A DNA stretch of 64,000 nt. It comes from Burkholderiales bacterium. Lineage in GTDB: Bacteria; Pseudomonadota; Gammaproteobacteria; Burkholderiales; JACQAP01. A model generated the notes under the pieces. That model saw only the letters and a list, made by a program, of their open reading frames with translations. It did no database searches and was not told the DNA's origin. Below, piece after piece: positions 30,301-30,713 of the stretch (position 1 is the first letter of the stretch; the number at the start of each line of letters is the position of its first letter). The DNA lies in contig DASUFB010000049.1 in NCBI GenBank assembly GCA_036274775.1, positions 8,068 to 72,067 of the forward strand. Direction: 5' to 3'. A program made the translations under genes and the position numbers.

Positions 30301-30349
30301 GGCTAGCCTGCCCTTGGGCAGGTTAAGGGCGCAGGCCCGGCCGGAACTA
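30301..30349 (-). repeat. Inverted copy of the TAGTTCCGG...TAACCTG-loop-CAGGYTAGCC hairpin repeat
   Basis: Reverse complement reads TAGTTCCGG-ccgggcctgcgccct-TAACCTG-cccaaggg-CAGGCTAGCC. It shares 9/9, 7/7 and 9/10 blocks with the unit at 30537. Confidence 0.7.
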
Positions 30350-30397
30350 AAATCCTTGTGTCGGCCATTGGCAGTGGTTGGACCCGTGGCCTCGCCA
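30346..30397 (+). pseudogene. Degenerate partial copy of the tRNA-Phe 3' half
   Basis: 30346-30364 ACTAAAATCCTTGTGTCGG equals tRNA positions 30453-30472 with one G of the anticodon deleted. 30374-30397 matches the T-arm/acceptor strand at 14/24. Confidence 0.55.
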
Positions 30398-30422
30398 TGG
30401 GTCGATAGTCTTGCAGCACAGT

Positions 30423-30498
30423 GGCCAAGTAGCTCAGTCGGTAGAGCAGAGGACTGAAAATCCTTGTGTCGGTGGTTCGATTCCGCCCTTGGCCACCA
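30423..30498 (+). tRNA. tRNA-Phe (anticodon GAA)
   Basis: Cloverleaf folded by hand: acceptor GGCCAAG/CTTGGCC, D arm GCTC-AGTCGGTA-GAGC, anticodon arm GAGGA-CTGAAAA-TCCTT, variable loop GTGTC, T arm GGTGG-TTCGATT-CCGCC, encoded CCA. Confidence 0.95.
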
Positions 30499-30536
30499 TT
30501 CCCTTCGGATCTTCAGCTTGTGTCGGCGGTTCGATT

Positions 30537-30651
30537 TAGTTCCGGCATAACCTGAAAGCAGGTTAGCCCCCGCTGAAACCGCTGCGCCGTTTTAGCTCCG
30601 GCATAACCTGGCGACAGGTTAGCCTCCACTGAAACAGGCATTCGCCTGTTT
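30537..30651 (+). repeat. Two tandem units (56 and 59 bp) of a hairpin repeat
   Basis: Unit 1 (30537-30592) reads TAGTTCCGGCATAACCTGaaagCAGGTTAGCCCCCGCTGAAAC.... Unit 2 (30593-30651) reads TAGCTCCGGCATAACCTGgcgaCAGGTTAGCCTCCACTGAAAC.... The AACCTG/CAGGTT stem is identical in both units; the loops differ. Confidence 0.8.
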
Positions 30652-30652
30652 T
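30632..30652 (+). terminator. Probable intrinsic terminator of the tRNA-Phe transcription unit
   Basis: AAACAGGC-attc-GCCTGTTT plus an extra T; this is the end of repeat unit 2. Confidence 0.55.
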
Positions 30653-30713
30653 CGCCCTTGGCCACCGCTCCCCTCCCATGCCTTGCAATGCCGCTTCACA
30701 CCATGTCCGCTGC

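Follow-up and report, generated by a model that had tools for sequence, protein, structure and literature searches.

How does a single tRNA-Phe gene come to lie between pieces of itself? In the window (the whole 64-kb stretch of DNA that was analyzed), partial copies of the gene for tRNA-Phe(GAA) are found both upstream and downstream of the intact one (Table 1). A preliminary description of this locus interpreted them as two attL/attR scars of tyrosine-integrase islands at an emptied integration hotspot and named a decayed tandem tRNA array as the alternative. All the repeats listed there are present, with matches of 16/16, 19/20, and 22/26 nucleotides (nt), and ARAGORN, which it proposed to run, reports one tRNA-Phe(GAA). 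We favor a different origin for the fragments, with a probability of about 75%: they would be the remains of extra copies of the gene that were broken by a small folded element, here designated E.

tRNA-Phe fragments and the inserts next to them

Table 1. Features of the tRNA-Phe locus (R1, covariance model of element E)
Feature	Position in window	Strand	Evidence or remark
Promoter-like site (TTGTCG, 17-nt spacer, TATAAT)	30232-30260	+	Precedes the entire array
E1	30256-30348	+	R1, 39.9 bits, E value 5e-8
Upstream tRNA-Phe remnant, anticodon-loop AAAA to variable loop (AAAATCCTTGTGTCGG)	30349-30364	+	3' flank of the E1 insertion site
Candidate decayed remains of T-arm and acceptor strand in the upstream copy (TGGTTGGACCCGTGGCCTCGCCAT)	30375-30398	+	Marginal similarity
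Intact tRNA-Phe(GAA)	30423-30498	+	ARAGORN; Rfam tRNA, 71.6 bits; sole tRNA of the window
Downstream partial tRNA-Phe copy, variable loop to T-loop end (CTTGTGTCGGCGGTTCGATT)	30517-30536	+	5' part deleted
E3, without H3, in the T-loop	30537-30593 (about)	-	R1, 14.9 bits; more decayed than E2
E2, without H3, in tandem with E3	30594-30652	-	R1, 30.9 bits, E value 9e-6
Second part of the downstream copy, with the 3' strands of T-stem and acceptor and 9 nt from the trailer (CGCCCTTGGCCACCGCTCCCCTC)	30653-30675	+	

The upstream remnant was recognized by a repeat finder as identical in 16 of 16 positions to nt 30457 to 30472 of the intact gene, and the same type of junction, in which E passes directly into AAAA..., recurs in 42 metagenomic loci. 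Its proposed continuation into the T-arm and acceptor strand is marginal: the local alignment score of 19 (shuffle mean, 12.8 ± 2.5) was reached in 47 of 2,000 shuffles. The downstream copy starts just 18 nt after the intact gene. Its first part matches nt 30463 to 30482 in 19 of 20 positions, and shuffled sequences gave 0 chance matches for this 20-mer. Its second part belongs to a repeat (nt 30650 to 30675 versus nt 30481 to 30506, 22/26 identical) that extends 9 nt beyond the 3' end of the tRNA. The exact 14/14 core of this repeat, CGCCCTTGGCCACC, is found in the window only at positions 30484 and 30653, and no further tRNA-Phe fragments were found elsewhere in the 64 kb.

The 115-bp insert that splits the downstream copy consists of two tandem 56-nt units that are 83% identical to each other, each with a TAACCTG....CAGGTTA hairpin. 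The stretch directly 5' of the upstream fragment is an inverted relative of these two units, and a perfect 12-nt inverted repeat (GCCGGAACTAAA / TTTAGTTCCGGC), also detected by the repeat finder, connects the junction on the upstream side with that on the downstream side. In L081, an independent Logan assembly, the downstream structure is identical to that of the window, which excludes an assembly artifact. Searches with the covariance model described below place all three units, E1, E2, and E3, in one element family and show nothing else significant in the window. E2, read on its own strand, is AAAACAGGCgaatGCCTGTTTCAGTGGAGGCTAACCTGtcgcCAGGTTATGCCGGAGCT. The length of E is approximately 57 to 95 nt in the window and 56 to 151 nt elsewhere.

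E1 lacks the tRNA 5' half that stands before E in the relatives, and its first hairpin, H1, has lost a part and is now joined directly to the promoter-like site, whose TATAATGCGC box is also found 5' of the arrays in two related loci (L016 and L084). The core of E1, nt 30295 to 30348 (GATGAAGGCTAGCCTGCCcttgGGCAGGTTAAGGGCgcagGCCCGGCCGGAACT), is well kept. This core is homologous to the 3' part of an insert at positions 3312 to 3399 of L016 and has the same flanking motifs. The stem sequences of the two copies differ yet stay complementary, with CCTGCC/GGCAGG in the window versus CATCGG/CCGATG in L016 and GGGC/GCCC versus GCTGGC/GCCAGC.

E is a discrete family with a covarying, strand-specific fold

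Alignment of 20 copies of E, followed by folding with RNAalifold, yielded the structure from which the covariance model R1 was built. The fold begins with H1, followed by a long-range stem, GGY/RCY, a 3-by-3 purine-rich internal loop, GNA/GRA, and a GGCU/GGCC stem that runs on into the hairpin H2 (UAAC...GUUA). An additional hairpin, H3, is optional and is found with many different stem sequences, the smallest form being GCGAAGC. The ends of E are ACAAC... and ...GGAGCC, and it has no terminal inverted repeats.

With this model, 74 copies of E were detected, on both strands, in 62 metagenomic and viral loci, including phage contigs. Among the 74 matches, 95.2% of the cells in paired columns are indeed paired, compared to 27 to 40% when the partners are slid, and compensatory changes on both sides are seen in 17 of the 24 pairs. 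The GGY/RCY pairing covaries as G-C or A-U in a ratio of 40:19. At one nearly invariant pair, 51 of the 60 distinct copies have U-G, and U-G is also found at each of two other pairs in 16 sequences. The fold is confined to one strand, since these U-G pairs would be A-C mismatches on the opposite strand. These data show that the copies of E form a discrete family whose fold covaries strongly and is specific to one strand.

None of the families in Rfam 15 matches E. In cmscan searches of the window region, L084, and six well-kept loci, at E values of up to 5 to 10, the tRNA alone was found. Known small ribozymes (hammerhead, twister, twister-sister, pistol, hatchet, and HDV-like) were rejected on these grounds, and the same holds for a degenerate group I intron, suggested by a resemblance to the Azoarcus intron for which the models gave no support.

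Occurrence of E within and outside tRNA-Phe loci

Relatives of the window were collected by scanning species-representative genomes with the neighboring MFS transporter. The order of the MFS gene and tRNA-Phe is conserved in several Burkholderiales-type metagenome-assembled genomes (MAGs), and a single tRNA-Phe without E is found in four of the relatives (L005, L007, L017, and L024). The window itself belongs to a Burkholderiales MAG, as an identical MFS transporter protein shows. In L016, whose MFS transporter is 63% identical to that of the window, a second copy lies immediately 5' of the intact tRNA-Phe. This broken copy comprises a complete 5' half ending in GGACTG, an 87-nt insert (E), and then AAAATCCTTGTGTC. 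In the closest relative with available DNA (L082 to L084), which shares the GroESL-MFS-tRNA order and whose MFS transporter is 84% identical, the tRNA leader contains a version of the array that is more decayed.

A scan of metagenomic sequences with the junction pattern GGCNGRARCYAAARTCCTKGTGTC, for which we estimate a chance expectation of approximately 1 match, returned 44 matches, 42 of them with E in the anticodon loop of tRNA-Phe after CTG; as the query includes the tRNA-Phe flank, this preference is partly a sampling effect. In 30 loci, the order is the 5' half, E, the 3' fragment, a short spacer of roughly 20 to 110 nt, and an intact tRNA-Phe. Some of the remaining loci have lost the 5' half, as has the window, and in L112, L120, and L128, E adjoins a complete displaced 3' half that is likewise without its 5' half. 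An interrupted copy with both halves intact was not found among the loci examined. Two back-to-back copies of E occupy one loop in L097, L127, and L100, and a double reverse insertion after GGTTCGATT in the T-loop, as in the window, is found in L091 and L129, the former being a fuller version of the arrangement in the downstream copy. A short leader, GCAGYAAAGT, is common to the tandem copies in many loci.

In L100 (positions 8980 to 9700), a 193-nt unit that consists of the tRNA 5' half, E, the 3' fragment, and a spacer with a CCGAT-TCCCC-ATCGG hairpin is tandemly repeated before the intact tRNA-Phe, an arrangement that suggests amplification through unequal recombination between E-bearing copies.

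The scar of a lost island would be a repeat of a 3' tRNA segment downstream of the gene, running from a loop crossover to the 3' end with identity limited to the attP core, and an integrase or cargo genes would lie between or beside the repeats. Repeats of this kind do exist among the relatives. On the reverse strand of L127, between approximately 4040 and 13400, three direct repeats from CTG|AAAATCC to ...CCACC follow tRNA-Phe with spacings of 5.2, 2.2, and 1.9 kb, and L112 has one 3'-half repeat 2.8 kb downstream of tRNA-Phe, with E directly before it. Both loci come from genomes other than that of the window, and neither set of repeats has a remaining integrase. The loci in which E abuts a displaced 3' half could also be counted in favor of integrase scars, and the segment 3' of tRNA-Phe is variable, since a TRAP transporter operon is found there in the window versus unrelated DNA in L084. 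Several points argue against this explanation of the window. One of the fragments is on the upstream side of the gene; the downstream copy begins in the variable loop rather than at a loop crossover and is split by E; the repeat continues into the chromosomal trailer; no more than 18 nt separate the intact gene from the downstream copy; and the junction sequences are those of E, which is also found far from any tRNA. As the preliminary description had stated for integrases, no integrase is encoded among the window proteins scanned, nor is a transposase or reverse transcriptase; all those with a Pfam match are housekeeping proteins. We therefore regard attL/attR footprints as quite an improbable source of the window's fragments. 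The proposed hotspot appears to hold for the clade, in which tRNA-Phe probably serves as an integration site, and the fragments in the window would be of another origin.

Several features of the segments around these repeats can be added. The L127 repeats have similar upstream arms (GGCAAGCGCTGTAAGTGACTGAT...), and an IS5-like transposase, helix-turn-helix (HTH) genes, and an M23 peptidase, with no integrase, are encoded between them. The TRAP transporter operon of the window (DctP, DctQ-like, and DctM; positions 30812 to 33594) lies between tRNA-Phe and hemA, and no repeat marking the far end of the variable segment was found in the window. The same place in L084 (positions 8090 to 9540) is taken up by unrelated DNA, 1.4 kb long, in which a small open reading frame (ORF) runs in reverse. 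In L016, AT-richer DNA directly 3' of tRNA-Phe (positions 3560 to 4000), followed by an ORF whose N terminus, as judged by eye, resembles that of a type I restriction-modification methylase (HsdM), may represent another island at this gene.

In addition to tRNA-Phe loci, E is present in phage contigs, as found in a viral scan with an internal motif that contains no tRNA sequence. In one phage group, it interrupts the major tail gene at codon 5, in antisense orientation. Among 80 related major tail loci, 7 are occupied and 73 are empty, and some of the phage relatives with empty sites encode proteins that are 98 to 99% identical. The empty site reads ATGGCCTACTTCT|CCGGACAAGG. In the occupied site, ATGGCCTACTTCT is followed by 75 nt of E, CCGGACA, 28 nt with a stop codon and a ribosome-binding site, and a repeated start of the gene. 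The insertion is thus exactly 75 nt between TTCT and CCGG, with no duplication and no loss, and it remains in frame as 25 codons with no stop inside. Since the occupied and empty sites differ in precisely this way, E is a discrete insertion without target duplication. As in the tRNA loci, the broken copy of the target adjoins an intact one.

In L148 and its relatives, the frame after E ends at a TGA just 5' of the new GGAGG ribosome-binding site and the second gene start, so that translational coupling is preserved. In L132, both gene starts encode MSYYASF with different serine codons (TCC/TCG versus AGT/AGC), which suggests that the two copies of the gene start came from different phage lineages.

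Further copies of E are located at the 3' ends of rpoD, a portal-like gene, and a usp gene, and one (L140, positions 9319 to 9393) is inserted in frame and in sense orientation inside a phage DUF6441 gene. A homologous DUF6441 gene in L133 (positions 2478 to 3149, minus strand) has at the same place a stretch of similar length that is alignable but decayed, as if an old insertion of E had turned into coding sequence.

The 3' end of the pyruvate kinase gene pyk harbors E in two distant taxa (L023, positions 15188 to 15291, and L020, positions 12051 to 12136, both on the minus strand), and the copies after usp, pyk, and rpoD are all in sense orientation. The coding strands of the two pyk copies differ at four synonymous positions, and compensatory changes in the 3' strand of H1 match these differences, which suggests selection on the structure in place. 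These copies, from a Rudaea MAG and a Casimicrobiaceae MAG, constitute a distinct subfamily (CGCUAAC ... GGCGAACGCU) that overlaps the last codons of pyruvate kinase (KIVRVGEHRS*).

E is a low-copy element, since a search of unrelated loci totaling 1.45 Mb gave only four extra matches, one of them weak. Scans of viral sequences for tRNA-junction patterns gave no matches, a blastn search of plasmids with one copy of E gave none either, and a blastn search of cultured phages with an 86-nt phage stretch that includes E gave chance-level matches alone. The motif C-K-G^A-R-A is common to the three sites for which an uninterrupted counterpart is available; this counterpart is the intact tRNA in the case of the two loops and a true empty site in the case of the phage gene.

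These occurrences bear on the decayed tandem array that the preliminary description had offered as its alternative. Part of it stands: relatives do have tandem copies of tRNA-Phe of which one is intact, tandem copies in many loci share the leader GCAGYAAAGT, and the trailer was duplicated together with the gene, which favors gene duplication over an attP core. In its plain form, in which the inserts are local slippage or random filler with no mobility, the array is hardly credible: an insert of the same sequence and structure, approximately 80 nt long, recurs in 74 copies among the 62 loci searched, further copies lie outside tRNA contexts, and phages have empty sites. In our reading, decay begins with the insertions of E into the anticodon loop and the T-loop.

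Possible origin of the locus and nature of E

The most probable course of events, in our judgment, starts with a tandem array of tRNA-Phe genes in which the middle copy stayed intact and the others were struck by the mobile element E and then decayed by deletion. E would enter precisely and without target duplication, either after CTG in the anticodon loop in sense orientation, as proposed for E1, or in the T-loop in antisense orientation, as proposed for E2 and E3 in tandem. After the entry of E, the upstream copy would have lost its 5' half and part of H1, which fused E1 to the promoter-like site, and the downstream copy would have lost all sequence 5' of the variable loop. As the tRNA-Phe gene is probably essential and present as a single copy, an insertion would persist only in cells that also keep a duplicated, intact copy. 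Such a need for a duplicate would explain why a broken copy is nearly always found beside an intact one; this link between insertion and duplication is one that we infer from the outcomes.

The least certain step is the movement of E itself. Our leading guess, made by analogy with IS200/IS605 ends and REP/RAYT systems, is that E is nonautonomous and, in the form of folded single-stranded DNA, is mobilized in trans. It is based on the precision of the insertion, the absence of both inverted repeats and duplications, a fold that is specific to one strand, and the covarying RCY/GGY pairing, in which the 3'-terminal RCY of E would pair with GGY 5' of the hairpin foot as a form of guide or cleavage-site recognition. 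Like E, IS200/IS605 ends, their nonautonomous derivatives (PATEs), and REP elements, which are mobilized by RAYT (Y1 HUH transposases), have no terminal inverted repeats and no target-site duplications. IS200/IS605 and REP/RAYT elements also share with it strand-specific hairpins, insertion beside a short motif, tandem copies, and perhaps a stretch 5' of the hairpin foot that pairs with the terminal nucleotides of the element. In contrast to these systems, E has three hairpins that are unlike one another, a low copy number, and no GTAG tag, and H1 begins at the very first base, which differs from the left ends of IS608. The 5' flanks of E, which end in CTG, CGG, or similar, amount to a consensus of 2 to 3 nt, and GGY/RCY could simply belong to an RNA fold. 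The presence of copies on both strands within one locus argues against a strict lagging-strand bias. Neither a Y1 transposase nor any other transposase partner of E was found among the window proteins scanned, which counts against its mobility.

Other observations speak against a purely mobile element. With its three-way junction, its conserved internal loop rich in purines, and peripheral stems that vary, E resembles a functional RNA, and most chromosomal copies are sense oriented and would be transcribed. E could accordingly be mainly a functional structured RNA, such as a leader-derived small RNA in a tRNA scaffold, a processing or stabilizing element, or a new self-cleaving ribozyme, which would spread through its usefulness or through movement at the RNA level, with the broken tRNA copies serving as an expression scaffold. 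This would suit the strand-specific fold with its G-U pairs, conserved internal loop, optional H3, and variable H1, the position of the anticodon-loop copies on the sense strand of the tRNA downstream of a conserved TATAAT box, the sense orientation after usp, pyk, and rpoD, and the compensatory changes in the two pyk copies. Hammerhead and twister ribozymes have a scattered distribution, occur in phages, and form tandem copies, and E resembles them in all three respects. On the other hand, an antisense orientation relative to the surrounding genes is seen in the T-loop copies and in the phage copies before capsid and tail genes, several relatives have no E, E1 has lost part of H1, and Rfam 15 contains no match, with all known small ribozymes included. 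A primarily functional role of this kind seems unlikely to us.

We put forward just as tentatively, and consider equally doubtful, a bolder version in which E is a new type of mobile structured nucleic acid. As a catalytic RNA, E would presumably cleave or ligate itself, entering the exposed loops of tRNA-Phe and phage transcripts. As a guide-paired single-stranded DNA element, it would be moved by a putative recombinase whose cutting is directed by the pairing of GGY with the 3'-terminal RCY.

Comparison with other known systems sets E, the mobile element that we prefer as the cause of the broken copies, further apart. Attachment sites of tyrosine-integrase islands use the same two sublocations in tRNA genes, the anticodon loop and the T-loop, and leave displaced fragments, whereas the inserts formed by E are gene-free and 57 to 150 nt long, with a fragment upstream and trailer sequence in the repeat, and E is also found in protein-coding genes. 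Group I introns in tRNA anticodon loops are likewise structured RNAs that insert precisely, between nucleotides 34 and 35, and whose peripheral stems vary; E is much smaller than any such intron could be, has no match among the Rfam models, never has both exons intact, and is antisense in the T-loop.

Other candidates were rejected as well. A MITE is contradicted by the lack of terminal inverted repeats and, in the comparison of empty and occupied sites, of a target duplication, and a high-copy REP is contradicted by the lack of other copies in the window and the few further matches in 1.45 Mb. A TnpB/omega-RNA guide would imply that the intact tRNA gene is cut and that a 5' motif is conserved, neither of which agrees with the observations. 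The ends of H2 resemble the RYYYAAC/GTTRRRY of integron attC sites, but, as judged by eye, its length of 22 to 45 nt, its perfect stems, and the lack of L boxes speak against such a site.

Small noncoding insertion elements are already known in bacteria. Rickettsia palindromic elements (RPE) and mycobacterial MIRUs are, like E, small, noncoding, structure-forming insertions that are tolerated within genes; they differ from E, which targets tRNA loops and is found in Burkholderiales-type bacteria and their phages. We found no description of E in the literature that could be searched, and it may be listed somewhere as a repeat under another name. Its closest published analogue is the BRE of Bordetella (PMC3110155), a betaproteobacterial repeat of 75 to 91 bp that is intergenic or sometimes located within coding sequences, often occurs in tandem without a spacer, and is transcribed as a small RNA. 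The sequence of BRE (TTTTTTTGGCCGCGGGCCGCCCAAGGCAAAAAAGCCCCC...) is unrelated, and the motifs of E are absent from the published BRE list.

E is unusual in hitting two defined loops of a probably essential, single-copy tRNA gene, in its three-way-junction fold with very strong covariation on one strand only, and in its in-frame position inside phage structural genes. It would clearly illustrate how a selfish element can shape arrays of tRNA genes, would explain broken pseudocopies of tRNA-Phe that annotation and island finders will misread as att sites, and is a compact candidate for a new system of single-strand transposition or a new functional RNA.

A minor observation concerns the DNA before the TRAP transporter operon. 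The sequence TAGTTCCGG is found three times in the window, compared to 0.12 expected. Its third exact occurrence, at approximately 30740, scores only 0.3 bits with the covariance model and was rejected as an additional copy of E. It lies within nt 30714 to 30748, where it overlaps a promoter-like site (TTGACA, 18-nt spacer, GATAGT) that precedes dctP.
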